Of a DNA stretch of 64,000 bases, positions 22,075 to 40,236 are shown piece by piece. The number at the start of each line of letters is the position of its first letter. Position 1 is the stretch's first letter. The position numbers were made by a program, and so were the translations under genes. The stretch lies in IMG/VR virus record IMGVR_UViG_3300012000_000013, positions 1,712 to 65,711 of that record. One strand, written 5' to 3'. A model generated the notes under the pieces. The model had not been told where the DNA came from and ran no database searches. It saw only the letters and a program-made list of their open reading frames with translations. This stretch comes from a virus. Taxonomy: Duplodnaviria > Caudoviricetes.

Positions 22075-22299
22075 ATGTTCGCTAAAGTAAAAGACCACGA
22101 AAACTTAGTAAGAGATATGAACTCCAAAGCGATTCTAAATACAGATAAATTAGCTTTGCAAGAGTATTATCAGAAAAGAGAAATGGCAAAAAAAGAACTA
22201 TCTGAAAAGGTAGAATCAAAACAACGCCTAGATAAAATAGAAAACGAAATGTCAGAGATAAAAGACTTGTTGCGTGAACTGATTGGCAGAGGTAAATAA
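22075..22299 (+). CDS. small coiled-coil protein
   Basis: LVRD..SKAILN, C-terminal EIKDLL; typically follows the VrlC-like gene. Confidence 0.7.
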   Translation: MFAKVKDHENLVRDMNSKAILNTDKLALQEYYQKREMAKKELSEKVESKQRLDKIENEMSEIKDLLRELIGRGK

Positions 22300-22625
22300 T
22301 GGCAGCCAATACAATAAACCAAATAACCACAGCAAATACATTCCAGCAGTGGTTAACTGCCACTTCTTCATTGATTGCCACTGCCAATTTAATCACAAAT
22401 GGTAATGGTCAAACATTTTATGCAAATACAATACTAGAGGTTTCTGGTAGTGGTGCTCGTTTAAATGTCAACACCTCTGGTTTCATTGAAACTTTTTATA
22501 GTAACACCGCAAATTTATTGACTGCCAATGTCCAAACTTTAGTTGGAACTGCAAATACCGCAATTTATGATAAAATTGCAGCTGTTGAAGCTTCTTCTTT
22601 AGCGTTCTCAATTGCACTTGGATAA
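22299..22625 (+). CDS. short fibre/anchor protein ending AFSIALG
   Basis: N-terminal NTFQQW motif, C-terminal hydrophobic peptide shared with 38077..40236. Confidence 0.65.
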   Translation: MAANTINQITTANTFQQWLTATSSLIATANLITNGNGQTFYANTILEVSGSGARLNVNTSGFIETFYSNTANLLTANVQTLVGTANTAIYDKIAAVEASSLAFSIALG

Positions 22626-22658
22626 ATAGATAAATAACAAAGAATAGGAATTTTTTTC

Positions 22659-22985
22659 ATGCCAAATACATTTAAGAATTATTTTTTAAAAAATGCAGGA
22701 ACAACTGCGGCTAACGTATATGCTCCAGCAGCATCTACACAGGCTACGGTGATTGGTTTAACGATTGGAAACACAACTGCTTCTCCAATTACTGCAAATG
22801 TGACCGTAGTTTCTGGCGGAACAACACATTTTATGGTACAAAATGCAACCATTTCAAATGGTGGCGCTTTAGTTCCAATTGGTGGAGACCAAAAATTGGT
22901 GTTAGAATTTGGAGATTATTTACAAGTTCAAACATCTACAAACAACTCAGCAGATTGTATTTTATCGGTACTGGAGATAACCTAA
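22659..22985 (+). CDS. beta-rich fibre adaptor-like protein (MPNTFKN...LEIT)
   Basis: 108-aa ORF similar to 23736 and 24083 paralogs; tandem GATAAATA late-promoter-like sites at 22621-22636. Confidence 0.65.
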   Translation: MPNTFKNYFLKNAGTTAANVYAPAASTQATVIGLTIGNTTASPITANVTVVSGGTTHFMVQNATISNGGALVPIGGDQKLVLEFGDYLQVQTSTNNSADCILSVLEIT

Positions 22986-22986
22986 A

Positions 22987-23736
22987 ATGGCATACCTTGG
23001 CAACGAGCCTGGTGTAGGTGCTTTTATTGTTGCAACCGAAAGGTTCAACGGTACAGGTTCTTGCACACAATTTACTATAACACAAACGGGTATTCAAGAT
23101 GCCAATGTTGTTGATGTTATCGTAAATAGCATTCAGCAAGATCCAATTAATTCTTATTCTATTGCTAATGGCGTAATTACTTTTACTGAAGCTCCATCTT
23201 CTGGAACTCAAAATATTATTGTTCGTTATCGTGCAACAACGGTAATTACATATAACAATATTCAAAATTCACAGATTCCTGATGGCACGATTACTGCAAG
23301 TAAACTGGCCGCAGGAGTTATTGTTCCTAGTGCAACTGCTAATTCGGCTGCAGGTTATGCTAATAGTGCTTTCTCTACTGCTAATTCATCATTTATAGCA
23401 GCTAATAGTTCAGGCACATATGCTAATACTGGTTTTGCAGTAGCAAACTCTGCAGCAATATATGCTAACTCTGCGTTTTTACGAGCAAATACACCGTCTG
23501 CAACAGCTAACTCTGGTTCAGTTTATGCTAATTCAGCATTTAATGTGGCTAACGGTGCTGCATCGGTAGCTAATACTGATTATACAACTTTATCATTTAC
23601 AGCAGGTGTTTATGGAAATGCAACAATTATTCCTTCATTAACCATTTCTTCAAATGGTCGTATTACAGCAGTAGCAAATACCGCTGTATCTGGAATTGAT
23701 GCACATCCATTTTTCTTTACAGCTATGGGGTCATAA
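22987..23736 (+). CDS. tail fibre-like protein (MAYLGN...; ANSA repeats; ends HPFFFTAMGS)
   Basis: N-terminal beta domain shared with gp7 and 28198 ORF; heptad ANSA repeats. Confidence 0.7.
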   Translation: MAYLGNEPGVGAFIVATERFNGTGSCTQFTITQTGIQDANVVDVIVNSIQQDPINSYSIANGVITFTEAPSSGTQNIIVRYRATTVITYNNIQNSQIPDGTITASKLAAGVIVPSATANSAAGYANSAFSTANSSFIAANSSGTYANTGFAVANSAAIYANSAFLRANTPSATANSGSVYANSAFNVANGAASVANTDYTTLSFTAGVYGNATIIPSLTISSNGRITAVANTAVSGIDAHPFFFTAMGS

Positions 23737-24083
23737 TGCCAACAGCATATAAAATTTTAGGTCAAACATTACCAACTGCAAACACATTAAGTAATGTGTA
23801 TGTGGTTCCAACATCCACATCTGCAATCGTTAGCACAATTACTATTTGTAATCAAAGCTCTGCTAATGCAAACGTGGATATTATTGTTCGCCCAATCAAT
23901 GAAACTTTGGCAAACAAACATTATCTTTTAAGAACAATTACAATTCCTCGTGCGGACACAATGATTCTTTCACCAGGACTTACACTTAATGCATCAGTAA
24001 TTGTAGCAGTAAATAATGCCGTTGTTACTGGTGAAACTGCAGCCAATGTATCCTTTAACGTATTTGGAGTAGAGTTAACATAA
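23736..24083 (+). CDS. adaptor-like virion protein paralog 1 (MPTAYKILGQ...VELT)
   Basis: Tandem paralog of 24083..24424. Confidence 0.7.
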   Translation: MPTAYKILGQTLPTANTLSNVYVVPTSTSAIVSTITICNQSSANANVDIIVRPINETLANKHYLLRTITIPRADTMILSPGLTLNASVIVAVNNAVVTGETAANVSFNVFGVELT

Positions 24084-24424
24084 TGCCTAATACATATAAA
24101 ATTCTTGGTCAGGTTAATCCTAGTGCCAACACACAAGCTAATATAGATGTTGTTCCTGCTGCAACAGAAGTAGTAATTAATTCAATTCAAATTTCAAATC
24201 AATCAGCATCAAATGCATCTTACAGTTTGATGGTTTTTCCATCTTCTGAGTTTTCTTCACCTGCATCTAATGGAAAATATTTCCTTATTCGTGGTGGAAC
24301 AATTCCTGCTAGCGATGCTGCCACATTGACTTTGAGTTTAACTTTACCTGCTGGAGCAATTTTAGCAGCTAACACAAATTCAGCAAGTCTTTCGTTCTCA
24401 GCATTTGGTGTTGAAATCACCTAA
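24083..24424 (+). CDS. adaptor-like virion protein paralog 2 (MPNTYKILGQ...VEIT)
   Basis: Tandem paralog of 23736..24083. Confidence 0.7.
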   Translation: MPNTYKILGQVNPSANTQANIDVVPAATEVVINSIQISNQSASNASYSLMVFPSSEFSSPASNGKYFLIRGGTIPASDAATLTLSLTLPAGAILAANTNSASLSFSAFGVEIT

Positions 24425-24436
24425 CAGGAAGGTGAT

Positions 24437-25381
24437 ATGTCAATACTATTTTCAAAAAATTTCTCAACAGGCTCTTTTGTAAGACCACTGGGATATACTT
24501 TTCCTGTTGGTCTTAATACCGGTGGATCATTATCGGTTGATTACCTAGTTATTGCTGGTGGCGGTGGCGGTGGTGTTAATATTGGCGGTGGCGGTGGAGC
24601 TGGTGGTTTGTTATCTGGCTCTAATTTAACGCTTGATACAAATTCTATTTACACAGTAACCGTAGGAGCTGGTGGAGCTGCATTAGCTGCATCAACACAA
24701 TCTACAACAGGAAATAACGGCTCTAATTCATCATTTAGTATTGTTTCTACTGCTTCAGTAGGTGGTGGTGGAGGTGGTTACTATGCAAGCACATCAGGAT
24801 TTGGTGCAAACGGTGGCTCAGGTGGTGGTGCTGGAGCACAAAGCACTCCAACAGTAAATGGAGGCACAGGAACATCTGGGCAAGGTAATAATGGTGGTAG
24901 TTCAAGTGGTTCTGGTTCTGCTTACGGTGGTGGTGGTGGCGGAGGTGCGAGCGCAGCAGGAGGAAATGCAAGCACAGGTGCTGCTGGTAATGGTGGAGCA
25001 GGATCAGCCTCATCTATTACAGGATCATCTGTAACTTATGCTGGAGGCGGTGGTGGCGCTGCTTACGGAAGCGGTGCAGTTGCAGGTAATGGTGGATCTG
25101 GCGGTGGTGGTGCTGGTGCAGCATCAAATGGTGCAACTGGTGGCACTGGAACAATAAATGCGCAAAACGGAACTGCAAATACTGGTGGTGGCGGTGGCGG
25201 TGGATCTTACTATACTCAAGGAGGCACAAACGCTTCTGGTGGTTCAGGCATCGTAATCATCCGCTACTCAGGTTCACAAGCAGCTGCTGGTGGAAATTAC
25301 AGTTCTTCTGGTGGATTCTCTATACATACCTTCACGGGTGACGGTACATTTACTGCTAACGTTGAATATCAAATTAATTAA
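24437..25381 (+). CDS. glycine-rich adhesin-like protein 1
   Basis: VDYLVIAGGGGGG, NTGGGGGG, GGSGIVIIRY, IHTFTGDG. Confidence 0.8.
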   Translation: MSILFSKNFSTGSFVRPLGYTFPVGLNTGGSLSVDYLVIAGGGGGGVNIGGGGGAGGLLSGSNLTLDTNSIYTVTVGAGGAALAASTQSTTGNNGSNSSFSIVSTASVGGGGGGYYASTSGFGANGGSGGGAGAQSTPTVNGGTGTSGQGNNGGSSSGSGSAYGGGGGGGASAAGGNASTGAAGNGGAGSASSITGSSVTYAGGGGGAAYGSGAVAGNGGSGGGGAGAASNGATGGTGTINAQNGTANTGGGGGGGSYYTQGGTNASGGSGIVIIRYSGSQAAAGGNYSSSGGFSIHTFTGDGTFTANVEYQIN

Positions 25382-25389
25382 AGAAAATA

Positions 25390-26328
25390 ATGGGAATTGA
25401 ATTTTTTAAAGCCTCTTCAAATTTAATGTTGGTTCGGCCACAGGGATATACTTTTCCTAACGGGTTAACTGGAGGGACGACAATTTCAGTTGATTATTTG
25501 GTTGTTGCTGGTGGCGGTGGTGGTGGCGGAAATACTGGCGGTGGCGGTGGCGCAGGTGGTTATAGAACAGCTTCAGGATTCTCTGTTACTGCATCAACTT
25601 CATATTCAATTACTGTTGGTGCTGGCGGATCAGGAACAACAGGAGGAACTTCAACAAATGGTTCTTCATCTATATTTTCTTCTATAACTTCCAGTGGAGG
25701 AGGTTATGGTGGTGATTTAGTTTTTCCTGCAGGAGGTTATAATAGACCCGCTGCAAGTGGAGGGTCTGGTGGTGGAGGAGGAAGTGCTTATGCAGGAAAT
25801 CCTACTCCAAGCACAAATTTTGGACCAGGTGCTGCTGGAACTCCAGGCCAAGGAAATTCTGGTGGAAATGGCCAATCAAATGTTTCTAATAATTCACCAG
25901 GAACAAATTTAACTGCTGGCGGTGGTGGCGGTGGTTCAGGTGGTACTGGCGGAGGCACAACACCTGGAACAGGCGGTGCTGGTGGTGCAGGTACAGCTTC
26001 GCCATTATCAGGAACACCAGTAACATATTCTGGCGGCGGTGGTGGCGGAGGATTTGTTACTTCAGGCCCTGCTGGGACTCCTGGTGGTGCAGGAGGAGGT
26101 GCTAGTCCAGGCACAGGAGCAAATGGAACAACAAACACTGGCGGTGGCGGTGGCGGTGGTGGGACAGGAACAACTTTAGGAGGCAACGGTGCCTCTGGCA
26201 TCGTAATTATTCGTTATTCAGGAGTTCAAGCTGCTACTGGTGGTACTGTAACATCTTCTGGTGGAAATACAATACACACCTTTAACGGTGACGGAATTTT
26301 TAGAACAGAATTTTTCGTAATCAATTAA
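25390..26328 (+). CDS. glycine-rich adhesin-like protein 2
   Basis: Same framework motifs as paralogs 1 and 3. Confidence 0.8.
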   Translation: MGIEFFKASSNLMLVRPQGYTFPNGLTGGTTISVDYLVVAGGGGGGGNTGGGGGAGGYRTASGFSVTASTSYSITVGAGGSGTTGGTSTNGSSSIFSSITSSGGGYGGDLVFPAGGYNRPAASGGSGGGGGSAYAGNPTPSTNFGPGAAGTPGQGNSGGNGQSNVSNNSPGTNLTAGGGGGGSGGTGGGTTPGTGGAGGAGTASPLSGTPVTYSGGGGGGGFVTSGPAGTPGGAGGGASPGTGANGTTNTGGGGGGGGTGTTLGGNGASGIVIIRYSGVQAATGGTVTSSGGNTIHTFNGDGIFRTEFFVIN

Positions 26329-26334
26329 AAAAAT

Positions 26335-27318
26335 ATGTCCGCAATTAAATATCTCAAAGCAAACAGAGTAGGCAAATTGGTTCGGCCAAATGGATATATT
26401 TTTCCTTCTGGACTTTCTGCAACCGCAAATTTAGTTGTGGACTATATTGTAGTTGCTGGAGGCGGTGGCGGTGGTGGTTATGGTGGAGGCGGTGGCGGTG
26501 GTGGTATGAGAACTGGTTCAGGATTTTCTGTAACATCATCAACTCCCTATTCAATTACAGTTGGAGGCGGCGGGCCAGGAGGTTCTGCTGGTTCAAGCAG
26601 AGGTGGAACAGGAACAGGAACAGCGGGAAGTAATGGTTCATCTTCTATTTTTTCTTCAATAACTTCTTCTGGTGGTGGCGGAGGAGGAACAGAAGATGGA
26701 AACGGCCGAAGCGGGGGTTCTGGTGGAGGCGCAGGCGGAACAGGTTTTCCAAGTGCTCCAATGACAGCAGGACAAGGAACTCCAGGTCAAGGAAACAATG
26801 GTGGCACAAGTGCAGGTAGCGGTTCTGTGCCAGGAAGTCCTTCAGGTTCAGGATGCGGTGGCGGTGGTGGCGCCGGTGCTGTTGGTGCCAATGCAGTTAA
26901 TCCTTCTGGAGGAAATGGCGGCGATGGAACATCAACAACAATTGCACCTTCAGGTAACCCAACAACTTATGCTGGTGGCGGAGGTGGCGGTTTTAGAGCT
27001 AGTCCTGGTGCTACTGTTTCTGCTGGTTCTGGAGGTAGTGGAGGCGGAGGTGCTGGAGCTTTTACAGCACCAGTAGCCACAGCAGGTACGACAAATACTG
27101 GTGGCGGCGGCGGCGGCGGAGGTCATTTGAACGGACCAGGAAACCAAGGAGCTGGCGGTGCAGGTGGTTCAGGTACTGTAATCATTCGTTACGCTGGTAT
27201 CCAAGCTGCTACAGGTGGTGCCGTTACATCTTCTGGTGGATATACAATACATACTTTTACTGGTGACGGAACATTTGCTACTAATTCCAATTTTGGACTT
27301 ATTTACTCAATCAATTAA
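26335..27318 (+). CDS. glycine-rich adhesin-like protein 3
   Basis: Same framework motifs as paralogs 1 and 2. Confidence 0.8.
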   Translation: MSAIKYLKANRVGKLVRPNGYIFPSGLSATANLVVDYIVVAGGGGGGGYGGGGGGGGMRTGSGFSVTSSTPYSITVGGGGPGGSAGSSRGGTGTGTAGSNGSSSIFSSITSSGGGGGGTEDGNGRSGGSGGGAGGTGFPSAPMTAGQGTPGQGNNGGTSAGSGSVPGSPSGSGCGGGGGAGAVGANAVNPSGGNGGDGTSTTIAPSGNPTTYAGGGGGGFRASPGATVSAGSGGSGGGGAGAFTAPVATAGTTNTGGGGGGGGHLNGPGNQGAGGAGGSGTVIIRYAGIQAATGGAVTSSGGYTIHTFTGDGTFATNSNFGLIYSIN

Positions 27319-27322
27319 ACCA

Positions 27323-27330
27323 TATAAATA
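27323..27330 (+). promoter_or_regulatory. late promoter TATAAATA
   Basis: Exact consensus, followed by AGGAG SD and the 27360 ORF. Confidence 0.8.
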
Positions 27331-27359
27331 GCGGTGTCACTTTTTATTAGGAGCTTTAA

Positions 27360-27752
27360 ATGGCACATTTTGCAAAATTAAATTCAGACAATGTAGTAGT
27401 CCATGTTTCAGTTGTTGATAACTGGAACTGCGTTGATGGTTCGGGTAATGAAGTAGAAGCAATTGGTGTTGCTTTTCTACAAAGCGTTCACGGTGTTGAA
27501 CCTGGCATTACATGGAAACAAACAAGTTATAACGGCAACATTCGCAAGAACTATGCAGGTATTGGAATGACATATGACGCTGGTCGTGATGCTTTCATTT
27601 CACCAAAACCATTTGCATCTTGGGTTCTAAACGAAACAACTTGCCGCTGGGAAGCACCAGTTGCTATGCCTTCTGATGCTGGCACAGGAACACCGCCAAA
27701 GATGTATCGCTGGGATGAAGATACAGTTAATTGGGTTGAAGTAACAATTTAA
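27360..27752 (+). CDS. conserved phage protein (MAHFAKL...WKQTSYNGNIRKNYAGIG), probable partner/chaperone of the Gly-rich proteins
   Basis: Recognisable family that commonly follows Gly-rich genes; function inferred. Confidence 0.65.
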   Translation: MAHFAKLNSDNVVVHVSVVDNWNCVDGSGNEVEAIGVAFLQSVHGVEPGITWKQTSYNGNIRKNYAGIGMTYDAGRDAFISPKPFASWVLNETTCRWEAPVAMPSDAGTGTPPKMYRWDEDTVNWVEVTI

Positions 27753-27767
27753 TTATAGGAGTTTATA

Positions 27768-28175
27768 ATGGATGTAAATAATGTTAGTGAAGTAATGAAG
27801 AATTTTTCTGGCGACAATGGTATGCCAGTTGGTATTGATACTGCAATCAAGGCTTTAAGGCCTGGTGCAACATGGGAAATTGAAATGGCCGGTGGCAATA
27901 TCACTTATCATAAGTGGTATCACAAAGATGGATTAAAACCGCCAACCAAAGATGAGATTGATGTAGAGCTTGCTTATCAAGAAAAGTTAGCTAAGCATTA
28001 TCAATATGCTTATGATAGGTGCAAACATTATCCTGATGGATTTGAGCAACTAGATATGTTGTGGCACGCAGTCAATGAAGGAATAGATTTAAAGAATTCA
28101 GAGTGGTTTCAAACGATTAAGGAAGTTAAAGAACAATTTCCTAAATCAGAAGGTAATCCACCAACAAAAGATTAA
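27768..28175 (+). CDS. fibre-associated hypothetical protein (possible chaperone)
   Basis: AIKALRPGATW, YP...EQLDMLWH...W...IK-VK..FPK; AGGAG SD. Confidence 0.6.
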   Translation: MDVNNVSEVMKNFSGDNGMPVGIDTAIKALRPGATWEIEMAGGNITYHKWYHKDGLKPPTKDEIDVELAYQEKLAKHYQYAYDRCKHYPDGFEQLDMLWHAVNEGIDLKNSEWFQTIKEVKEQFPKSEGNPPTKD

Positions 28176-28197
28176 TAACAAGAATAAATAGGCTACC

Positions 28198-29304
28198 ATG
28201 GCATTCATAGGCAACACCGTTCAAACAGTTCCGTTTATCACAGATACTTTCTCTGGTACTGGTGCTCAAACGGCATTTACTCCGTTAACTAGAGCACCAG
28301 CTGGCTCAGCATCTATTGCTGTGTTTATCGCTGGTGTTTATCAACCTCCTTCTGCATATACATTAAGTGGCGTTACCATTACTTTTGTTTCTGCACCAAC
28401 AGCAGGCGCAGGTAATATTATTGTTTTACATTTAGGTAATGGTTCTGCAACACAAGTTCCATCTGATGGCTCTGTAACAGTTTCTAAATTAAGCAGTGAT
28501 GTTTATGGATATATCAATGCAGCTTTTGCAACTGCCAATTCAGATAGTGGTGTTGCTAATAGTGGTGCTAGTTATGCTAACTCTGCATTTATTACTGCTA
28601 ACAATAGTCTTGGTATTGATTTAACACAGAACACTAATATTACAAATGCTGGAACTTATGCCAATTCAGCCTTTGCTGCAGCTAATACGGCAACAGCTTC
28701 TGGTTCATACGCCAATTCAGCATTTATAGCTGCTAACAACAGTCTTGGTATTGATACTACTCAAAATACCAACATAACAAACGCTGGCACTTATGCTAAT
28801 GCGGCTTTCTTAGTTGCTAATACTCCAACTCATGTAGCAAATAGTGCCGCTAGTTATGCAAATAGTGGATTTGCCGTAGCTAACTCTGCCGCTGGATATG
28901 CTAACTCCGCATTTGCAAAAGCTAACACTGCTGGTGTTGGAACAGTAACTTCAGTTGCTACTGGTAATGGATTATCAGGTGGAACAATTACTTCTACTGG
29001 AACCTTAGTAGTTGCTTGCCCAACATTTAATACTGTTGGAAGTTATTGTTTTGGTGGGTGGACAAATAATTGCGGTGGCGCAACTTTAAGTTCAGGTAGC
29101 AATTATTCTGCTGGAAGTGGTTTTAGACAAATTCGATCTGTAACAATAGTAAGAAATGATTCTCAACCTTCTTGCAGTAGTTCCGCAGGTTCTGTAAGTA
29201 GTAATAATTTATCAGGCACTTGGAAAATTATGGGTGCACCTGCCTCATCAACTACAAATATGGGTGAAGTTGCTAACATGACTTTAGTTTGCAGAGTATC
29301 TTAA
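28198..29304 (+). CDS. tail fibre protein with ANSA stalk and Cys-containing tip
   Basis: MAFIGN N-terminus, ANSA repeats, GTVTSVATGNGLSGGTIT, LSGTWK...CRVS tip. Confidence 0.75.
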   Translation: MAFIGNTVQTVPFITDTFSGTGAQTAFTPLTRAPAGSASIAVFIAGVYQPPSAYTLSGVTITFVSAPTAGAGNIIVLHLGNGSATQVPSDGSVTVSKLSSDVYGYINAAFATANSDSGVANSGASYANSAFITANNSLGIDLTQNTNITNAGTYANSAFAAANTATASGSYANSAFIAANNSLGIDTTQNTNITNAGTYANAAFLVANTPTHVANSAASYANSGFAVANSAAGYANSAFAKANTAGVGTVTSVATGNGLSGGTITSTGTLVVACPTFNTVGSYCFGGWTNNCGGATLSSGSNYSAGSGFRQIRSVTIVRNDSQPSCSSSAGSVSSNNLSGTWKIMGAPASSTTNMGEVANMTLVCRVS

Positions 29305-29316
29305 AAAGGAAAATAT

Positions 29317-29571
29317 ATGTTTACTTTAGAATATGCCAAAAATCCAATTTACAACAACGAAGAAGGCACAGCCATTCTCCTAACAGTTAAATGGGAAGAA
29401 TTTGTAGAAGAAATGCCTTTTGGTGCTTGCTCTTTTGATCCTGAGCCTTGGGGTGTTGATTTATATAATCGTGCAAAAACGGGTGAATTTGGTGAAGTTT
29501 TACCATTTCAAACAACAGTTGTTGCAAGCATTGATTTTCAGCCAACATCAACAGGTACACAAACATTGTGA
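29317..29571 (+). CDS. probable tail fibre assembly chaperone
   Basis: Directly follows the fibre; PF-A...DPE..G..LY.RA..GEFG-V motif. Confidence 0.6.
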   Translation: MFTLEYAKNPIYNNEEGTAILLTVKWEEFVEEMPFGACSFDPEPWGVDLYNRAKTGEFGEVLPFQTTVVASIDFQPTSTGTQTL

Positions 29572-31296: not shown

Positions 31297-31511
31297 TGGC
31301 TATTACAGGAATTGTTAAACAACAGGTTAGGTCAACAATTGTAGCACAAAGTTTTGCACCTAAACCAAATGTGGCGTTAACTGAATTGACAGATGTTAAT
31401 GTTTCAACAATTCAGAACAATCAAGTGTTACAATACAATTCTGCTACAGGTAAATTTGTAGCAAACACAGTAACCGCTTCTTTAGTTGCGGTTAACGGCG
31501 GTTCGTTTTAA
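31296..31511 (+). CDS. small fibre-associated protein ending NGGSF
   Basis: LTELTDV...VLQYNSATGKF repeat unit; coupled ORF. Confidence 0.7.
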   Translation: MAITGIVKQQVRSTIVAQSFAPKPNVALTELTDVNVSTIQNNQVLQYNSATGKFVANTVTASLVAVNGGSF

Positions 31512-34288
31512 TGGCAAATACATTAATACAACTAAAGTCATCCACATCTAATGCGGCTCCAATCGTATTAGATGTTGCTGAACCGGCGTATTCGTATGTA
31601 AGTAATACCTTATTCATTGGCACTGCTGCTGGTAATGGCGTATTGCCTATTGGCGGCCAGTTTTATGTTGCTCAGCAAGAACTAATATTTGCAAAAACTA
31701 ATGCCGCTTTTGCAGCTGCTAATACTGGTTCAGGTGCTGCTTCTGCTGGTTCATATGCCAACTCAGCTTTCTTAGTAGCTAATACTCCAAACTATGTAGC
31801 CAATTCAGCGGCCTCTTATGCTAATGCTGGTTTTGCAGTAGCTAACTCTGCTGCTAGTTATGCTAATAGTTCTTTTTTATCTGCAAATACTCCAAGTAAT
31901 GTAGCAAACTCAGCTGCACTCTATGCTAATTCTGCCTTTGCAGCTGCTAACAATGCTTCTGATACATGGGTTCGTAATCAGGCAAACGCTGCCTTCTTAC
32001 AGGCTAATACTCCATCATATACTGCTAATAGTGCAGCCTTATATGCTAACTCTGCTTTCTTACAGGCAAACACACCAAGTTATGTAGCTAACTCAGCAGC
32101 TGCTTATGCCAATGGCGCATTTGCGGCCGCTAATACAAAATTTAATTCATCTGGTGGTACAATCACAGGTGACACAAGTATTACTGGTAACTTAACTGTT
32201 ACTGGCACCACAACATATACAAATACTGTTACTGTATTAATTGCTGATAATATTATCACAGTTAATGCCGCTATTAGTCAGTCAGCACAACCAACATCAA
32301 ACGCTGGTATTGAAGTTGATAGAGGCGCACAACCAAATTCTTCATTTTTATGGATTGAAACTGCTGGTAAATGGTCTGCGAACAACGGAAATGCTTCATT
32401 TTATATTGCAGCCGACTCGGCAGAATCTTATGCTAATGCAGCCTTTGCAGCTGCTAATGCCGCTAATGCAACAGATGCCACTCAAAATGCCAGTATTACC
32501 GCAGCTTTTATTCAAGCAAATGCGGCTTTCTTACAGGCTAATACTCCAAGTAATGTAGCAAACTCAGCTGCAAGTTATGCTAATGCAGCCTTTACTGCTG
32601 CTAATACGGCTGGTGGTTCAGTTCAAGGTAATACAATAAACCTTGGTTCAAACACAGTTGGTCTTTTAGTAAGTAATGCAGTAACACTTACAACAACAAC
32701 AAAAGTAACTGATGGTTTGGCATTAATTAATAATGTGTTAGGTAAATTAGTTCCACCTGGCCCACCTGCTTTCCCATCTTCTAATACTATTTCTATTGCT
32801 TCTGTATCTTCTTACAGAATGACAAACTTCAGTCAGACAGATAGAACATCAAGTAGTCGTGGTGTTGCTGCTGGCACAACTGTTACAAATACAAGACGAG
32901 CTGCAACATACTCAATTACACCAACTATTCCTGACCAGGGACCGGGTGATAGTGGCACATTAACATTATTTGTCAATGGTGCAAACACCGTTGCCTATAC
33001 ATTTACATCATCAAGTGCCAATGGTACTTACACAAGTGGTGGTCACTCATTAGTTATTTCTGATAGTGTTGATTATGGTTCTAAGATTGTAGGTACTGCA
33101 CAAGGCTTCTGGAGAAGTTTTGATTGTAGTGCCAACGGTACTGTATCAAATGGTTGGAATGAATTATTCATTACTCATAGTGGCGCTTCCTCTACCAACA
33201 CTCCATTTTGGTATTATGATGATAGTGCGCCAGGTGCTGTTGTAGTTAATAACGGAAGTTTAACAGTTAACTCAGCTGCATACTCCAACTCATCTACAAT
33301 TCCACACTATACAAGTGCCACATTATTCAATCTTGGATTTAATATCTCTAAGTTAAGTGGCGATATGTATCCAACTAGTGATACATTTGTTGCCTCTGCA
33401 GCTGGTGGTGCATTTGGTGCCAACTCTGGTGTAACATATGCACAAGCAGGCATCACAACACCACTTGCAAGGAATCTTTATGTTTCAAGTGGTCAAGCAA
33501 CAGTCAATTTAACATCAGCAATCGTATCAGGTTTTGGAAATAGTTCAACTGGTGTTGTTGTAACTGGTCAAAACAGTTATACCGCAGGCACATTATCGGT
33601 AACTCCAGGCGTTACTATTCAATACAAAACAGGCAACACAAGTTCCAATACTGTAATTGGTGGTGAAGATAATCTATTCTTCGGCTCAACAGTTGGTACC
33701 GGATCAACGGCGGCGTTTCGTATCGTCAATCCTGGTTCAACGGATAATCCTGCATATGCGAATGGTGCATCAGCATTTAACTCGACCTCTGGTACATTGG
33801 AAGCATATGATGCCACAGTAGTTGCCGCTACATTAAAACATGATATAACAAATTACTCCACAGGTTACTTGCCTGTTGGTCCAAATTTAAGTTCAGGCCG
33901 CTCAGGTCCACAATATTTTACATTCAAATTTGTTAGAACATCTTTGTCCAAATTTGATATTCAATTTACAGGTAATACTGCTGGTGTTTGGGTAGCCGCA
34001 CCAGGAACTGTAATTGATTCCACTTCTTCGTTGAATGGCTGGTTGTCCATGACTACTGCATATGCAGGCTCTGGAATTCCAGGTGCTAATGCTCCAGGTA
34101 ATGGTAGCAATGGTTGTGCTTTGGGTGGAACAATTACTGCAAATACAGCAGTTACAACACACAGAAAGACTTGCACATTCGGTACAGTATCAACATCTAA
34201 TTCCACAGGTAATGAAGTTTATGTAAGAATTAAATTGTTGGCTGGTCAGACTATTACTGCACTTTCATTACAAACAGCGAATAATTAA
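31511..34288 (+). CDS. long tail fibre-like protein (MANTLIQLK N-domain, ANSA stalk, large beta-rich C-terminal region)
   Basis: 925-aa ORF, heptad repeats, AGIEVDRG module. Confidence 0.75.
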   Translation: MANTLIQLKSSTSNAAPIVLDVAEPAYSYVSNTLFIGTAAGNGVLPIGGQFYVAQQELIFAKTNAAFAAANTGSGAASAGSYANSAFLVANTPNYVANSAASYANAGFAVANSAASYANSSFLSANTPSNVANSAALYANSAFAAANNASDTWVRNQANAAFLQANTPSYTANSAALYANSAFLQANTPSYVANSAAAYANGAFAAANTKFNSSGGTITGDTSITGNLTVTGTTTYTNTVTVLIADNIITVNAAISQSAQPTSNAGIEVDRGAQPNSSFLWIETAGKWSANNGNASFYIAADSAESYANAAFAAANAANATDATQNASITAAFIQANAAFLQANTPSNVANSAASYANAAFTAANTAGGSVQGNTINLGSNTVGLLVSNAVTLTTTTKVTDGLALINNVLGKLVPPGPPAFPSSNTISIASVSSYRMTNFSQTDRTSSSRGVAAGTTVTNTRRAATYSITPTIPDQGPGDSGTLTLFVNGANTVAYTFTSSSANGTYTSGGHSLVISDSVDYGSKIVGTAQGFWRSFDCSANGTVSNGWNELFITHSGASSTNTPFWYYDDSAPGAVVVNNGSLTVNSAAYSNSSTIPHYTSATLFNLGFNISKLSGDMYPTSDTFVASAAGGAFGANSGVTYAQAGITTPLARNLYVSSGQATVNLTSAIVSGFGNSSTGVVVTGQNSYTAGTLSVTPGVTIQYKTGNTSSNTVIGGEDNLFFGSTVGTGSTAAFRIVNPGSTDNPAYANGASAFNSTSGTLEAYDATVVAATLKHDITNYSTGYLPVGPNLSSGRSGPQYFTFKFVRTSLSKFDIQFTGNTAGVWVAAPGTVIDSTSSLNGWLSMTTAYAGSGIPGANAPGNGSNGCALGGTITANTAVTTHRKTCTFGTVSTSNSTGNEVYVRIKLLAGQTITALSLQTANN

Positions 34289-34849
34289 ATGGCAATTTTA
34301 GATTCCGCAAAAGTCGACCTACTATACAAAAAGCTCTTTGGTGTTGCTAAGACAGACACACCTGTTAATAAGGGTGCAAGTAATGAATCTATTGCTAGTC
34401 CTGCAATTAATCGTGGTGACAAAATTTGGACACAGGCATCAAGCATACCTGGAACTGCTGCGGCCGTTACTGGTATTGTTGAAGCATACCAAACAACTTC
34501 GGCTGTTCAATGTACCGCAGACACAACATCAACTGCTATCAGTAGCGTTTTTCCAACTTGGAAAACTAATCTAACCGATTGGATTCCACCAGAGTTTGGT
34601 TCAACATACTTTGTGGCAGTCTATGCTGACACTTCAGGAGCAGCAAATCCTGTATCAACTGGAACACAAATGTTTGATTCTGGTATTGGTGGTGTAGGTG
34701 AGTGGTTCTTTGACTATCAATCAGGTGTATTAAATTTCATTGGTGGCACAATTCCAGCCACACTAACATCCGCTAAAGTTGTCTATGTTACAGGCTACAG
34801 ATATGTTGGAGAAATAGGAATACAAACAATTAAAGGTGGTAGTTTCTAA
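34289..34849 (+). CDS. virion protein ending KGGSF
   Basis: KVDLLYKKLFGVAKTD, EWFFDYQSGVLNF, GYRYVG. Confidence 0.7.
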   Translation: MAILDSAKVDLLYKKLFGVAKTDTPVNKGASNESIASPAINRGDKIWTQASSIPGTAAAVTGIVEAYQTTSAVQCTADTTSTAISSVFPTWKTNLTDWIPPEFGSTYFVAVYADTSGAANPVSTGTQMFDSGIGGVGEWFFDYQSGVLNFIGGTIPATLTSAKVVYVTGYRYVGEIGIQTIKGGSF

Positions 34850-34906
34850 CTACCGCAAAACATAAATAGACTATAAAGAGCCTTACCCAATAGAGGATCA
34901 TAAAAA

Positions 34907-36577
34907 ATGGCAAATACAGTAATTCAACTAAAGTGGTCTGATGTAACATCAGCACCAACTTCATTAAATGTCGGTGAGGCTGCATATTCTAATACCTCAC
35001 AAAGATTATACATTGGTGACACATCTAACAATGTTCTCACCATTGGCGGTAAATTCTTTGTAGACCAACAAGGTCAAATATTTACCAAAACTAACGTAGC
35101 ATTTGATGCCGCTAATAGTGCAGCTTCTTATGCTAACTCTGCTTTTGCAACGGCTAACTCCGGTTCTGCAGCTGCATCAGCCGCAAGTTATGCCAACTCA
35201 GCATTTGTTGCTGCTAACTCAGCTGGTGTTTATGCCAATTCAGCATTTGTTGCCGCCAATACTCCATCTTATGTTGCTAATAGTGCAGCCAGTTATGCTA
35301 ACTCTGGATTTGCTGTTGCTAATAGTTCTGCTTCTTATGCGAATAGTGGATTTGCTACTGCTAACTCTGCTGGTTCATATGCCAATTCAGCATTTAGTTT
35401 AGCAAACGGCCATAGTGCTATTGCTAACTCAGCAGCTGCTTACGCAAACTCCGGTTTTGCAGTTGCTAACTCAGCTGCAACTTATGCTAACTCAGCATTT
35501 ACTCGTGCTAACAATAGTATCAACGCAAATACTGGCGGTACAATTACTGCTGACTTGGTTATTACTGGTAACTTGACAGTTCAAGGTAATACAACTTATG
35601 TTGATACAAAAACAATTACAACAGGCGATTCATTAATTCACCTTGCTAATAATAATACGGCAGGTGATACAGTAGATATTGGTTTCTACGGAACATATAA
35701 CTCTGGTGGTCAGAAATATACTGGTCTTGTAAGACAAGCTGGTGCAAATTACTTCTTGTTCCAAAACTTAACTAGTGACCCAACTGCAAACACTCTTGCT
35801 CCAGGTTCGTTAACTGCCGCTAACACAGGCACATTGACTGCTAATTTAACATCATACTCTGTTACAATTAATGGTCAAGACATCAACCTCTATACAACAA
35901 ATGCTTATACACAGGCAAATACTGCTGTAGCAAATGCACTTGCGGCTTCAACTGCTGCTAATGCGGCTTTTGCGGTTGCAAATACTGCTAGTGCTTCTGG
36001 TACATCTGCTGGTTCATATGCTAATGCAAGCTTTGCGGTTGCTAATAGTTCCGCTTCATATGCAAATAGTGGATTTGCGGTTGCCAATAGTGCCGCTAGT
36101 TATGCTAACTCAGCGTTTTTATCTGCTAATACTCCATCATATGTAGCAAACTCTGCTGCTAGTTATGCTAACGCAGCCTTTAGTGTTGCTAATACTGCTA
36201 GTGCTTCTGGTACATCTGCTGGTTCATATGCAAACTCTGCGTTTGCAAAGGCTAATACAGACTTTACAAACATTAGTATTACAGGTGCTGATTATGGTAC
36301 AGCATCTTCTGTTCCTGCATTTAGAGTCGAAGCGAATGGTCGTATCAGTTCTGCCAACTCAACTGCTATCGCAATCGCTGCTTCTGCAATTACTTCTGGC
36401 ACATTAGGTGTGGCACGAGGCGGTACTGGTGCTGGCACATTTACAACAAATGGTGTTCTGTTGGGTCAAGGTACTTCTGCATTTACCACGGCTTCATCGT
36501 CAACAGAAGGACATTTATTGACTATCAATGCTTCTGGTGTTCCAACTTTCTCTCATTTACAAGGCGGAACATTCTAA
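34907..36577 (+). CDS. tail fibre-like protein (MANTVIQLK...QGGTF)
   Basis: ANSA repeats, DIGFYG module, LGVARGGTG motif; CATAAATA at 34861. Confidence 0.75.
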   Translation: MANTVIQLKWSDVTSAPTSLNVGEAAYSNTSQRLYIGDTSNNVLTIGGKFFVDQQGQIFTKTNVAFDAANSAASYANSAFATANSGSAAASAASYANSAFVAANSAGVYANSAFVAANTPSYVANSAASYANSGFAVANSSASYANSGFATANSAGSYANSAFSLANGHSAIANSAAAYANSGFAVANSAATYANSAFTRANNSINANTGGTITADLVITGNLTVQGNTTYVDTKTITTGDSLIHLANNNTAGDTVDIGFYGTYNSGGQKYTGLVRQAGANYFLFQNLTSDPTANTLAPGSLTAANTGTLTANLTSYSVTINGQDINLYTTNAYTQANTAVANALAASTAANAAFAVANTASASGTSAGSYANASFAVANSSASYANSGFAVANSAASYANSAFLSANTPSYVANSAASYANAAFSVANTASASGTSAGSYANSAFAKANTDFTNISITGADYGTASSVPAFRVEANGRISSANSTAIAIAASAITSGTLGVARGGTGAGTFTTNGVLLGQGTSAFTTASSSTEGHLLTINASGVPTFSHLQGGTF

Positions 36578-36602
36578 ATTATTATCGTGAAAAGGAGTTA
36601 TT

Positions 36603-37091
36603 ATGAATGTGGAGTTTTCAAATGCATATCAAGAGGTTTTGCTTGAGAACCTAGATGTAATTCTTAAGCAAAACTTTATGATGCAAACAAGATTAAAGTT
36701 GCTTGAAAAAGAAGCAAATGTTCGTGCAGAAATGCAGGCAAAAATTGATGAGCTTACAGTAAAACACCAAGAAGCGTTAGAGCAAATTGGTCAAAGCCAA
36801 CATTATAAGGTACAAGCAGAAAGTAATGATGCTATAGTTCAAGAAAAAACTAGAATTCAATCTGCTTTAAATGATACTATGCGAGAGCTTGGTACAACAA
36901 AAAGTGCGTTAGAGGCAAGACAAAAAGAAGTAGAGGAAATGAATTCTCGTATAATTGAATTAGAAAAATTAGTTCCTCCTGCACCTAAAGTTGTTAAGAA
37001 AGTTACTGTAAAAGCTATTGAAGAAAAGCCTGTTGAAATTTCTGCTACTGAAACCAATAAAGTAAGGGTTGAGGCTGGCGGTACATTTTAA
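36603..37091 (+). CDS. charged coiled-coil protein ending AGGTF
   Basis: AAGGAG SD; E/K/Q-rich heptads. Confidence 0.7.
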   Translation: MNVEFSNAYQEVLLENLDVILKQNFMMQTRLKLLEKEANVRAEMQAKIDELTVKHQEALEQIGQSQHYKVQAESNDAIVQEKTRIQSALNDTMRELGTTKSALEARQKEVEEMNSRIIELEKLVPPAPKVVKKVTVKAIEEKPVEISATETNKVRVEAGGTF

Positions 37092-38068
37092 TGGCAAATA
37101 CAGTAATACAACTTAAACACTCAACATTAACCGGTAATGTTCCATCATCACTGGCTAATGGTGAAATTTCCATCAACAGTCGTGATGGAAAGTTTTTCTA
37201 TTCCACGCCAGCAGGTGTAGTCACCACTCATTATCCTTATTTGGGACCAGCAGGTCTCAACAAGGAAATTCAATTTAATGATGGTGGCACTCTAGGTTCA
37301 AGTTCAGGTCTTACATTTGATAAAGCATCTGGATATTTAACTGCCACATTAATAAGAGCAAATCAATCTTCTGGTGATGAAGGAGGTCAAATTGACCTTG
37401 CAACAGCCGCAACAAATCAAAGTTTGTCTGGCGGCTATGTTAACATTGACATCTTTCAAAATAAATTAAGAATTTTTGAATCTGGTGGTACTAACCGTGG
37501 TGTCTATATTGATATTGCAAATGGTGCATCAGCTGGAGTAGGAACAAATTTATTATCACCATCATCATCTACTGATGGATGGGCAAGAGGTCAAGCAAAC
37601 GCTGCCTTTTTACAAGCAAACACTCCAAGCTATACGGCCAATTCTGCCGCTAGTTACGCTAATGCCGCTTTTGCACAAGCAAATACGGGTTCTGGTTCTG
37701 TATCAGCTGGTTCATATGCCAACTCAGCATTTTCTAAAGCTAATTCTGCTTGCACTGCTGCTGCAACAGCACAATCAACAGCATCTAGTGCAGCTGGAGC
37801 CGCTGCGGCCGCACAAGCTACCGCCGATGCAGCTTATAACACTTATGATTTTGCTTCAATATATACACCAAATAATGCAACAACTGTTACTGCGTCCAAT
37901 CGAAACGACACACTTACAATTGTAGGTGAATCTGGCATTGTTGCTTATGCTAATTCTTCAACAAAAACAATAACGATTGCTGGCACTCCAGGCGCACAAG
38001 GATTAACGGTAGACTATGGATTTGTTGCGGATCCATTATATTATGCCATTGATTACGGAACTCTATAA
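37091..38068 (+). CDS. tail fibre-like protein (MANTVIQLK...IDYGTL)
   Basis: P-SL-NGEI-IN..DGK N-domain, IQFNDGG, GDEGGQI, ANSA repeats. Confidence 0.72.
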   Translation: MANTVIQLKHSTLTGNVPSSLANGEISINSRDGKFFYSTPAGVVTTHYPYLGPAGLNKEIQFNDGGTLGSSSGLTFDKASGYLTATLIRANQSSGDEGGQIDLATAATNQSLSGGYVNIDIFQNKLRIFESGGTNRGVYIDIANGASAGVGTNLLSPSSSTDGWARGQANAAFLQANTPSYTANSAASYANAAFAQANTGSGSVSAGSYANSAFSKANSACTAAATAQSTASSAAGAAAAAQATADAAYNTYDFASIYTPNNATTVTASNRNDTLTIVGESGIVAYANSSTKTITIAGTPGAQGLTVDYGFVADPLYYAIDYGTL

Positions 38069-38076
38069 ATACAAAT

Positions 38077-40236
38077 ATGTCAACACAAGTCCAATTTCGT
38101 AGAGGTACAACAGCTCAGACCGCATCATTTACTGGTGTAACGGCTGAGATTACTGTTGATACCACAAAAAATACAGTCGTTGTCCATGATGGGTCAACTG
38201 CTGGTGGCTTTGCTTTAGCTAGAGAAAATTCAAGTAATACTGCTGGTTCTTATGCCAACTCTGCATATGCCACCGCTAACTCGGCACAGTCATATGCTAA
38301 CTCTGCTTTTGCAACTGCTAACACTTCTGCAGCTGCTGGTTCTTATAGTAACTCTGCATTTGGTGTTGCCAATTCAGCAGCCAGTTATGCAAATAGTGGA
38401 TTTGCCGTTGCTAACTCAGCATCTTTATATGCCAATTCAGCATTTTTAACTGCAAACAATTCTGCTGGTGTAAATCTAACTCAAAACACCAACATAACAA
38501 ATGCTGGTACTTACGCTAACTCAGCATTCCTTGCCGCTAATACTCCAAGTCATGTAGCAAATTCAGCTGCATCATACGCTAATGGTGCTTTCACTAGAGC
38601 CAACAATAGTATCAATGCAAATACTGGTGGTACAATATCTGGTAATCTTGTAATTGCTGGTGCAAACCTTGTTGTTGCCAATGGTGCAACAGAAGTTTTT
38701 AATGTTAGAAGTTGGAGCACTTCAGGTTTAGCTTCTACATCCAATTCAACTGGTACTGTAACAATTACCGGTGGTGTTGGTGTAAAAGGTAATATTTACG
38801 CTGATGCTGTCTTTGATGGTGATATTGAAATTATAGCATATGCTAATACTGCTTTCTTAGCTGCTAATACCCCAAGTCATGTTGCCAATTCAGCGGCCAG
38901 TTATGCTAATTCTGGTTTTGCCGTAGCAAATTCAGCTGCAAGTTATGCTAACTCTGCTTTCATAGTTGCTAATAATAGTTTAGGTATTGATACTACACAG
39001 AACACCAACATCACAAATGTTGGAACTTATGCCAACTCAGCATTTTTAACCGCTAATACTCCAACTCATGTAGCAAATTCAGCTGCAAGTTACGCCAATT
39101 CAGGATTTGCAGTAGCTAATAGTGGCAGTTCTTATGCTAACTCAGCATTTGCTTCTGCTAACAATTCTGCTGGCGTAAATCTAACACAGAATAATAATAT
39201 TAGTTCTGCTGCCAGTTATGCCAATTCTGCTTACACAAGAGCAAATAATTCATTAAATGCAAACACTGGCGGTTCAATCACCGGTGATATTTCAATAACT
39301 GGTAATTTAACTGTAACTGGTAATACAACTTACACCAATACAATCACAGTTTTAATTGCAGATAATATTATTACAGTTAATGCCGCAATCGACCAAGCAG
39401 CACAACCAGCAGTTAATGCTGGTATTGAAGTTGACCGTGGCGCTCAACCAAATTCTTCGTTTTTATGGATTGAAACTTCTGGTAAATGGGCAGCAAATAA
39501 CGGCAATGGTTCTATATTCATAGCGGCTGATTCGGCTGAATCATATGCAAATGGTGCTTTTGCTAAAGCTAATAATGAAGGTGGTGTTAATGCCACACAG
39601 AACACCAACATAACAAACGCTGGCACTTATGCTAATGCAGCTTTCTTAGTTGCTAATACTCCAACTCATGTAGCCAATTCAGCCGCTAGTTATGCTAATT
39701 CAGGATTTGCGGTAGCCAATTCTGGTGCAAGCTATGCTAACTCAGCATTTATAATTGCTAACAATAGTTTGGGTATTGATTTAACTCAGAATACTAACAT
39801 TACAAATGCTGGAACTTATGCTAATAGCGCCTTTGCAGCTGCTAACACAGCTGATGCCAAAGCAGTAACAGTAGGTTCATATGCCAACTCAGCATTCCTT
39901 GCTGCTAATACTCCAAGTCATGTTGCTAATAGTGCCGCTGGTTATGCTAACTCCGGTTTTGCAGTAGCTAACTCAGCTGCATCTTACGCTAACTCAGCAT
40001 TTCTTGCCGCTAATACTCCAAGTCATGTAGCAAACTCAGCTGCACTATATGCCAATGGTGCTTTTGCTCAAGCAAATACAGACTTTACAAACATTAGTAT
40101 TTCACCATCACAAACATATGGTAATTCTGGTTACTATCCTGTAATTACTATATCAGCAAATGGCAGAATTAATGCAGTTTCGACTCAAGTGGTTACTGAC
40201 CCAAGTGCTATCGCATTTGCAATTGCTCTAGGATAA
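38077..40236 (+). CDS. tail fibre protein with Mtd_N-like N-terminus, ending AIAFAIALG
   Basis: MSTQVQFRRGTTAQ..SFTG..AEITVDT-K-TVVVHDG-TAGG; long ANSA repeats; TATAAATA at 38064-38071. Confidence 0.78.
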   Translation: MSTQVQFRRGTTAQTASFTGVTAEITVDTTKNTVVVHDGSTAGGFALARENSSNTAGSYANSAYATANSAQSYANSAFATANTSAAAGSYSNSAFGVANSAASYANSGFAVANSASLYANSAFLTANNSAGVNLTQNTNITNAGTYANSAFLAANTPSHVANSAASYANGAFTRANNSINANTGGTISGNLVIAGANLVVANGATEVFNVRSWSTSGLASTSNSTGTVTITGGVGVKGNIYADAVFDGDIEIIAYANTAFLAANTPSHVANSAASYANSGFAVANSAASYANSAFIVANNSLGIDTTQNTNITNVGTYANSAFLTANTPTHVANSAASYANSGFAVANSGSSYANSAFASANNSAGVNLTQNNNISSAASYANSAYTRANNSLNANTGGSITGDISITGNLTVTGNTTYTNTITVLIADNIITVNAAIDQAAQPAVNAGIEVDRGAQPNSSFLWIETSGKWAANNGNGSIFIAADSAESYANGAFAKANNEGGVNATQNTNITNAGTYANAAFLVANTPTHVANSAASYANSGFAVANSGASYANSAFIIANNSLGIDLTQNTNITNAGTYANSAFAAANTADAKAVTVGSYANSAFLAANTPSHVANSAAGYANSGFAVANSAASYANSAFLAANTPSHVANSAALYANGAFAQANTDFTNISISPSQTYGNSGYYPVITISANGRINAVSTQVVTDPSAIAFAIALG

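Follow-up and report, generated by a model that had tools for sequence, protein, structure and literature searches.

We analysed a 64,000-nucleotide (nt) stretch of viral DNA, hereafter the window, which is part of a 65.7-kb contig from IMG/VR (record IMGVR_UViG_3300012000_000013) with a completeness estimate of 37%. Positions 22075-40236 of the window hold an 18-kb cluster of tail fibre genes, with a giant DUF4815/VrlC protein on one side and neck and tail-completion genes on the other. The giant protein and the neck protein are closest to those of Methylophilales phage Melnitz and of Pelagibacter phages HTVC008M and Mosig; judged by this likeness, the source is a marine T4-like myophage. The open reading frames (ORFs) of the cluster carry short conserved C-terminal tails, and each class of tail recurs ahead of ORFs with a particular N-terminal module. 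We propose, with a probability of about 0.7, that the cluster encodes segmented tail fibres, in which these tails dock non-covalently on the N-terminal module of the next gene product.

Plugs and sockets in the fibre cluster

An earlier note on this DNA, made from its letters, had listed four pairings of ORF ends (plugs) with ORF starts (sockets). All four are present and every motif is where it was described, except that the numbers given for the ends mark the starts of the ORFs concerned. Naming genes by their start position, the first pairing joins ORFs ending in GG[ST]F (31296, VNGGSF; 34289, KGGSF; 36603, AGGTF) to ORFs starting MANT[LV]IQLK (31511, 34907 and 37091, respectively), and 34907 itself ends QGGTF. 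In the second, the end of 37091 (DYGFV...IDYGTL) precedes MSTQVQFRRG of 38077, a match to Pfam Mtd_N. The third concerns the tails AFSIALG (22299) and AFAIALG (38077), the former followed by the MPNTFKN adaptor 22659 and the MAYLGN fibre 22987, with MAFIGN of 28198 as a related start. In the fourth, HPFFFTAMGS of 22987 is followed by two MPxxYKILGQ adaptors and three Gly-rich proteins; the three adaptors end LEIT, VELT and VEIT.

The first pairing is unlikely to reflect gene order by chance. Among the 66 non-nested plus-strand ORFs of the window four end in GG[ST]F and three start with MANT, and the three direct adjacencies were recovered in 18 of 200000 gene-order permutations. None of the 62 minus-strand ORFs ends in GG[ST]F or [AS]IALG.

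If each segment is a separate polypeptide whose last 5-10 residues form a conserved docking tail, the genes can be read as three cassettes (Table 1). Cassette A would run from 22299 (...IALG) through adaptor 1 (...LEIT), the MAYLGN fibre (...FFTAMGS) and two copies of adaptor 2 to the Gly-rich tips. Cassette B would lead from 31081 (...PGVTQ) through 31296 (...GGSF) to the MANT fibre 31511. Cassette C would start with 34289 (...GGSF) and continue with 34907 (MANT start, ...GGTF), 36603 (...GGTF), 37091 (MANT start, ...DYGTL) and 38077 (Mtd_N start, ...IALG).

Table 1. Genes of the fibre cluster and its surroundings (positions in the window; aa, amino acids; cassettes as proposed in the text).
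Position	Strand	Product and termini	Remarks
16142-22072		DUF4815/VrlC giant protein	
22299-22625	+	108-aa protein, end ...SSLAFSIALG	would be first piece of cassette A
22659-22985	+	adaptor type 1, MPNTFKN...LEIT	108-aa nine-strand beta-sandwich (predicted)
22987-23736	+	MAYLGN fibre, YANSAF repeats, end HPFFFTAMGS	
23736-24083	+	adaptor type 2, MPTAYKILGQ...VELT	
24083-24424	+	second adaptor type 2, MPNTYKILGQ...VEIT	
24437-25381	+	Gly-rich paralogue	likely distal tip of cassette A
25390-26328	+	Gly-rich paralogue	likely distal tip of cassette A
26335-27318	+	Gly-rich paralogue	likely distal tip of cassette A
27360-28175		small ORFs starting at 27360 and 27768	phrog_7759, E 3e-46 (27360); phrog_9114 (27768)
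28198-29304	+	second fibre, same N-domain (MAFIGN)	possible alternative partner of adaptor 1; phrog_18673, E 8e-12
29317-29571		small ORF	matches N-terminal part of tail fibre phrog_1795, E 8e-13
30196-30936		homing endonuclease	phrog_655, E 1.5e-45
31081-31296	+	71-aa protein, end ...SPGVTQ	possible anchor of cassette B; phrog_1084, E 3.6e-16; phrog_3304, E 2e-12
31296-31511	+	71-aa connector, end ...VAVNGGSF	GGxF plug
31511-34288	+	925-aa fibre, MANTLIQLK socket, large C-terminal domain	phrog_8578, E 6.4e-92
34289-34849	+	186-aa protein, end ...IQTIKGGSF	would start cassette C; phrog_9417
34907-36577	+	556-aa fibre, MANTVIQLK socket and ...SHLQGGTF plug	
36603-37091	+	162-aa coiled-coil-like protein, end ...VEAGGTF	
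37091-38068	+	325-aa fibre segment, MANTVIQLKHSTLTGNVP socket, DYGFV...IDYGTL end	socket resembles T4 gp37 N-terminus
38077-40236	+	719-aa fibre, Mtd_N N-domain MSTQVQFRRG, end ...AFAIALG	last gene before neck genes
40240		gp13-like	
41200		gp14-like	
42093		sheath stabiliser	followed by terminase genes
43449-43937		162-aa DNA-binding protein	phrog_3636, E 2.4e-30

The Gly-rich paralogues match Pfam Gly_rich_2 (PF21722) with 64.5, 60.7 and 46.7 bits for 24437, 25390 and 26335 (gathering cut-off 24.3; E 1.8e-17 to 5e-12), and 28198 is 47% identical to 22987 in alignment. Repeats of the (S)YANSAF type, with many matches within the genome, are common to the shafts of five fibre proteins (22987-23736, 28198-29304 and 31511-38068). 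Compared with cultured phages by megablast and blastn, the cluster has no close relative, and tblastn of 36603 and 34907 found none. The homing endonuclease gene interrupts the cluster, with cassette A and its accessory genes on one side and cassettes B and C on the other, while the DNA-binding protein is encoded between the small and large terminase genes. The small ORFs that come after fibre and tip genes (27360, 27768 and 29317) may encode fibre assembly factors; Melnitz carries MSHYAKV/MAHYAKI homologues after its own Gly-rich proteins.

Coupling of tails and N-terminal modules across phage genomes

We scanned viral contigs by the MANTxIQLK start alone, which returned at least 120 loci and 135 matches, or 99 unique junctions, 7 of them at contig edges. 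Among the matches listed, the nearest upstream ORF ends in GGxF in 83 of the 92 assessable junctions; the other ends are G[SN]xF (3), DDF (4) and DDINF (1), and in the last case a spurious 50-aa ORF conceals an 87-aa ORF ending GGRF. GGxF ends on 'background' ORFs (114 of 1325 unique) belong mostly to the same system, judged from the matches listed: they comprise MANT fibres with the end SGVPTFxHLxGG[ST]F as well as coiled-coil proteins (about 170 aa) and small ones (about 80 aa). Co-occurrence and adjacency across genomes, one of the checks that the earlier note had named, thus come out in favour of the motif pairs.

The coupling extends to subtypes, since the socket subtype tracks the plug subtype. 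Starts of the MANT...GNVP type come after coiled-coil proteins ending [VE]xGGTF or KSGGTF (the family of 36603, 23 members, precedes such starts), KKS-type starts after ...DDF, and W/Y/F-S-type starts after small or 186-aa proteins. The 186-188 aa family of 34289 recurs ahead of MANT starts, and the architecture of 34907, with socket and plug in one protein, is found again in many contigs. Upstream of the small GGxF proteins, most ORFs have the end P[SGN][VI]T[RQK], with at least 46 of 69 cases among the matches listed. In Melnitz, a 90-aa protein ending NGGTF precedes a fibre starting MSTIIQIKR.

Other pairings involve the adaptors, relatives of which were sampled from 46 loci. The ORF upstream of an adaptor ends in IALG at adaptor identities down to 36%, with rare variants (IVMG, IAFG), on proteins that range from 97 to 603 aa; relatives of 22299 (105-387 aa) retain this tail ahead of adaptor 1. 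In 30 of 36 pairs an MxY[IL]G fibre comes after adaptor 1, and in 16 of 22 a Gly-rich protein comes after adaptor 2. Six distant cultured phages (CRP-9, HTVC010P, Yersinia GN1, S-TIM5, Ochrobactrum OC and Rhizobium I1_18) all have [AS][LM][AS]IALG directly upstream of the adaptor, on ORFs of 81-669 aa, and in five of the six an ORF starting M.[YHF][IL]G[NR] comes directly after it. Podoviruses and other myoviruses have the adaptor too. Melnitz carries two ...IALG-type proteins, each ahead of a MAN[NT]FKNA adaptor, and a 71-aa ...FAIALG protein before its neck gene.

Members of the adaptor family are beta-sandwich proteins of about 100-120 aa that start M[AP]N[TN]FK or MxxxYKxLG and end [LV]E[IL][TS], traits that the window adaptors have. 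A profile search found 7448 representative clusters at E ≤1e-3 and 1732 at ≤1e-10, the best 150 being mostly stand-alone proteins of 101-120 aa. The window adaptors match the N-terminal part of phrog_1276 (E 4.8e-6 to 1.3e-7); they hit 0 Pfam families at E ≤0.01, and the adaptor profile has no sequence relative in the PDB. The AlphaFold2 model of 22659 has nine strands (mean predicted local distance difference test score, pLDDT, 94.5; predicted template modelling score 0.83) and 87 neighbours in BFVD at E ≤1e-3 (template modelling score, TM, up to 0.95), mostly labelled 'uncharacterized' or 'virion structural protein'. A Foldseek search of the PDB yielded weak beta-sandwich matches only (E 4e-4 to 5e-3, TM 0.47-0.65, identity 6-17%). 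Ena endospore appendages (7a02), nucleoplasmin cores, VP2 of infectious bursal disease virus (IBDV) and a tail-fibre chain of phage 7-7-1 (9rkv_M) have this topology in common with the model; with matches so weak and no profile relative in the PDB, the adaptor is not a member of the Ena, nucleoplasmin or 7-7-1 families.

To compare all classes at once, we tabulated the ends and starts of 1475 unique adjacent same-strand ORF pairs from loci picked by a MANT start (among the matches listed) or by adaptor homology. The table is nearly diagonal. GGxF ends precede MANT starts in 86 pairs, adaptors in 0, other socket classes in 2 and other starts in 93; the two apparent exceptions, classed as Mtd_N-like by pattern, read MANLxIQIKRS and are MANT-like. 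IALG ends precede adaptor 1 in 36 pairs, other socket classes in 0 and other starts in 39. FFTAMGS/LMLSGM ends are followed by adaptor 2 (15 pairs) and DYGxx ends by Mtd_N-like starts (13 pairs), and by nothing else.

Mtd_N-like starts come after more tail classes than this table suggests. An unbiased scan by the start xTQxQxRRG returned at least 120 stretches and 103 unique junctions, 93 of which could be assessed. Among the matches listed, a strict D[YFLW]Gx(1-3) tail lies upstream in 25 of the 93, about a dozen further ends, read from the same matches, are near variants (DMG, DQG, DAG), and others are of the types ...NLFWSEAQA (18), ...AIA[IV]ALG (16) and ...IDGGTY (8). In another phage group, 16 unique cases among the matches listed have an IALG tail before an Mtd_N-like protein of 134 aa. 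The gene order there is a fibre (...AIAVALG), the 134-aa xQFRRG protein (...LALIVALG) and adaptor 1, so that IALG again precedes adaptor 1. Either tails and sockets do not pair one-to-one, or neighbouring genes do not always encode physical neighbours. The proposed docking had been called orthogonal, which is partly contradicted by IALG tails that also precede the neck gene and Mtd_N-like starts, and by the several other tail classes ahead of the latter.

Two side observations concern these tails. In another phage group (loci L184 onward, e.g. L189, L201 and L225), a protein of about 955 aa starting MARQLIEKYI... and ending ...NLFWSEAQA is encoded 23-31 nt before an Mtd_N-like fibre. In Melnitz (L129 12445-15961), the MSTIIQIKR fibre ends ...GIDGGTYS and the next fibre starts MSTVIKLKK, and in other contigs proteins of 66-84 aa starting MAVTVQFRRG end ...IDGGTY before a second xQFRRG protein. 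Judged by its letters, DGGTY appears to be one more class of tail, intermediate between GGxF and DxGxL.

Several of these results weigh against the proposed docking. The 93 other starts after GGxF are mostly cases of a MANT fibre followed by a coiled-coil protein, or MANT variants that the pattern missed, and the 39 after IALG are mainly the last fibre ahead of the neck gene. Motif classes were defined after the data had been seen, and two of the motifs had served to select the loci. The phage gene clusters from which all loci derive are related, and hence the counts are not independent events. The strict D[YFLW]G tail is in the minority ahead of Mtd_N-like starts, where IALG tails also occur. 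Within the window, four GGxF plugs face three MANT sockets and two IALG plugs one adaptor 1, so that the partners of 34907, 36603 and 38077 are tentative. Furthermore, 37091 shows no similarity to T4 gp36 (E 1.3), and the one joint modelled below (31296/31511) is a model rather than a measurement.

These limits bear directly on an explanation by inherited synteny, in which duplicates of an ancestral gene pair, its ends conserved, were passed on vertically, the tail having no contact with the next N-terminus. Such a history fits with every locus being a homologous fibre cluster of related phages, with the exceptions to adjacency and with classes set after the fact. It does not account for the bodies that bear the tails: after removal of the last 20 aa, the 84 GGxF-bearing upstream proteins fall into 5 single-linkage BLAST families and the 36 IALG-bearing ones into another 5, that is, each tail sits on at least five unrelated bodies. 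Among 37 small proteins 24-72% identical to 31296, the only invariant columns are M1, G68, G69 and F71, so that apart from M1 invariance is confined to the tail. Sockets that hardly differ from one another (MANTVIQLKFSTVTAAPT[ST]L) are preceded by proteins of 85, 186 and 369 aa, and podoviruses and myoviruses with widely differing hosts share the IALG/adaptor pair. Given, in addition, the fusions and a docking model that passed its controls (see below), we consider inheritance without contact improbable.

Conservation could also act on the DNA, with GGN-GGN codons serving as a Shine-Dalgarno sequence for an overlapping downstream gene, or the junction serving as a recombination linker through which modules are exchanged. 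GGAGG-type codon pairs do occur in 15 of the 41 junctions whose gap is ≤12 nt, but in just 1 of the 43 wider ones, which shows translational coupling at work in the choice of codons at tight junctions. Yet Gly-Gly-x-Phe is retained even 13-97 nt away from the next start, in 43 unique junctions, and we therefore rejected a Shine-Dalgarno sequence as the cause of the motif. The four GG[ST]F tails of the window use four codon sets (GGC GGT TCG TTT; GGT GGT AGT TTC; GGC GGA ACA TTC; GGC GGT ACA TTT), with Ser encoded by TCG in one and AGT in another; the 60 nt before its three junctions, one of which has a 57-nt spacer, are only 25-45% identical. With such differences, a duplicated or recombining DNA linker was rejected too. 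Retention in both gap groups in spite of varying codons indicates selection at the protein level, and a nucleotide-level origin appears scarcely credible.

Modelled docking, fusions and proposed assembly

We modelled the GGxF/MANT joint as a complex of three copies of 31511(1-100) and three of 31296, each with an alignment of 36-37 rows. The ...VAVNGGSF/MANTLIQLK complex scored 0.77 (runs 0.77, 0.76 and 0.79) versus 0.32 for the best of three controls; the runs share at least 97% of contacts and the pLDDT of the partner is at least 67. Of 80 solved complexes, 58 reach the score mark used, as do 2 of 110 mismatched pairs; this calibration is only roughly valid here because of our own alignments and the 3+3 design. 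The modelled interface brings residues 63-71 of 31296 against residues 1-12, 14, 17-18, 23 and 26 of 31511, which are the plug and socket proposed beforehand. A sequence search of the PDB found no relatives of the MANT N-domain profile, 37091 or T4 gp36, making it unlikely that the model merely reproduces a deposited complex. Binding between 31296 and 31511 gains support from the model, and multimer docking, which had been suggested as a check, passed its controls for the one pair run.

According to this model, each of three tails would form a strand alongside MANTxIQLK in the trimeric N-domain, and its terminal Phe would adjoin N-domain residues 9-11, 14, 17 and 26. The other joints may dock likewise, with the adaptors as trimeric connector nodes, and the order of segments in the virion would be that of the cassettes.

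Some pieces that are split in the window are found fused elsewhere. P0029 (429 aa) is a single chain reading ...ATALAIALG-QN-MAQTFKNY...SVLEQT; in L135, L138 and L144 an MxYIGN fibre is in frame with an adaptor 2 domain; in P0071 two adaptor 2 domains are joined to a collagen-like fibre; and adaptors stand at the N-terminus of fibre-like proteins in P0071 and P0121. These fusions imply that the split pieces are modules of one fibre and that the adaptor can be attached on either side. Residues 1-67 of the HTVC008M fibre gp062, a protein of 1020 aa, are homologous to the family of 31296 (hhalign probability 95%, E 3.3e-8). This match stops just before the plug, and no GGxF-ANT fusion is present within gp062, where the small module leads directly into a different shaft.

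The same observations address a further possibility, that the small tail-bearing proteins and the adaptors of about 108 aa are assembly chaperones or scaffolds, recognising fibre termini during folding and absent from the finished fibre. Phage fibre chaperones are generally known to be small and encoded beside the fibre, 36603 is helical or coiled-coil and has no structural annotation, and plugs outnumber sockets in the window. T4 gp38 and gp57A, mentioned in passages of PMC3004832, may be cited in this context. However, the adaptor is labelled 'virion structural protein' in S-TIM5, HTVC010P, CRP-143 and Rhizobium phages (an annotation only), it is fused to the C-terminus of a fibre and to the N-terminus of the fibre-like P0071 and P0121, and the small-protein module forms the N-terminal domain of the one-piece fibre of HTVC008M. 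Overall, we judge a purely assisting role unlikely.

Docking between separate polypeptides, with C-terminal tails tied to particular N-terminal modules, is favoured by the cross-genome co-occurrence, the unrelated bodies, the fusions and the one docking model. The interpretation in the earlier note is partly supported: it is right in its core, namely peptide-to-domain joints between separately encoded fibre segments, whereas its branched, combinatorial appendages with swapped tips go beyond what the evidence supports. More tentatively, many kinds of tailed phages might use one portable fibre-joining grammar, a claim that we find rather doubtful when taken with all its details. If true, a stand-alone beta-sandwich connector would capture the hydrophobic ...IALG strands of a trimeric segment and present an MxYIGN segment, and the GGxF and DxGxL tails would do the same job on gp37-like and Mtd_N-like N-domains. 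With more plugs than sockets per genome, a given socket could take any of several segments, from which mixed or branched fibre sets would result, along with a natural way of exchanging distal parts.

Relation to the T4 long tail fibre and other fibre systems

The N-terminus of 37091 resembles that of T4 gp37 (BLASTP E 8e-7, 16/39 identical, 41% over 39 aa), and that of 38077 does so more weakly (E 0.003). T4 gp36 ends ...SVQDFGYY and gp37 starts MATLKQIQFKRSKIAGTRP...GELAINLKD; ...DFGYY just ahead of MATLKQIQFKRS resembles DYGTL ahead of MSTQVQFRRG here. As stated in the sections consulted of Leiman et al. (2010, PMC3004832), trimeric gp36 binds the N-terminal region of gp37 and T4 long tail fibres are assembled end to end; in extracts from a 2026 preprint the (gp36)3-(gp37)3 complex is still modelled at low resolution. 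The likeness to gp36 and gp37 lies in separate polypeptides joined end to end in gene order. Since the MANT domain resembles the end of gp37 that binds gp36, the fibre joints are not a categorically new system: the joining principle is that of the T4 long tail fibre.

There are also clear differences from T4. The main plug here is GGxF, which is not found in T4 gp34-37, several joints are present per genome, two more are mediated by adaptors, and the fibre cluster sits between baseplate and neck genes, where T4 has genes 9-12 and wac and not 34-37. As a gp36 homologue, 37091 was rejected on the E value given above. No Pfam family, the one for gp36 (which we take to be Phage_T4_gp36) included, is matched above cut-off by 31296, 34289, 36603 or 37091, and 31511, 34907 and 37091 have no Pfam hit at E ≤0.01. 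Unlike the MANT domains, 38077 matches Mtd_N (PF18454; compare Mtd of Bordetella phage BPP-1) with 51.8 bits and E 7.7e-14 (gathering cut-off 26.3 bits). A single family of MANT and Mtd_N-like domains is unsupported (hhalign probability 0.8%).

Other phages dock separate receptor-binding proteins. In LtfA/LtfB of the T5-like phage DT57C and in the anchor-branch receptor-binding proteins of Klebsiella phages, separate fibre or spike proteins reportedly dock via conserved terminal modules while distal parts can differ, and the CBA120 tailspikes form a multi-protein receptor-binding system that docks via conserved terminal modules. In those systems the N-termini of branches dock on an anchor, whereas here a C-terminal tail pairs with the next N-terminus; a Pfam scan of 20 cluster proteins gave no match to a gp10-like docking domain. 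T2-type gp38 is, in the excerpted text of PMC3157838, a small separately encoded adhesin at the C-terminal end of the gp37 fibre. The adaptors differ from it in being conserved instead of hypervariable, in lacking a Pfam match and in having a further fibre after them.

Our literature search found no description of these terminal motifs, and no title on fibres among the matches to AIALG plus phage. Of the 'undescribed system' that had been suspected, the specific tails are thus apparently new, while end-to-end assembly was already known from T4. As far as this search shows, the same holds for how many joints a genome has and for the triad of ...IALG, adaptor and MxYIGN fibre, which is widespread.

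In marine T4-like phages (pelagiphages, cyanophages and their uncultured relatives), most annotation of fibre clusters reads 'hypothetical' or is wrong. In HTVC008M (L130 1646-12406), four long fibre-like proteins that have repeated fibre motifs in common are labelled 'baseplate wedge initiator' in RefSeq, and one of them starts MPTALQLRRG, which is Mtd_N-like; on these features the label looks wrong. Terminal rules would let annotators order segments from sequence, with GGxF ahead of MANTxIQLK, ...IALG ahead of adaptor and MxYIGN, and FFTAMGS/LMLSGM ahead of adaptor 2 and a Gly-rich tip, and would help to spot split and fused forms. Structural biologists would gain defined peptide-domain pairs and a large adaptor family with neither a Pfam entry nor a solved relative, and the T4 gp36-gp37 joint would gain diverse relatives for comparison.

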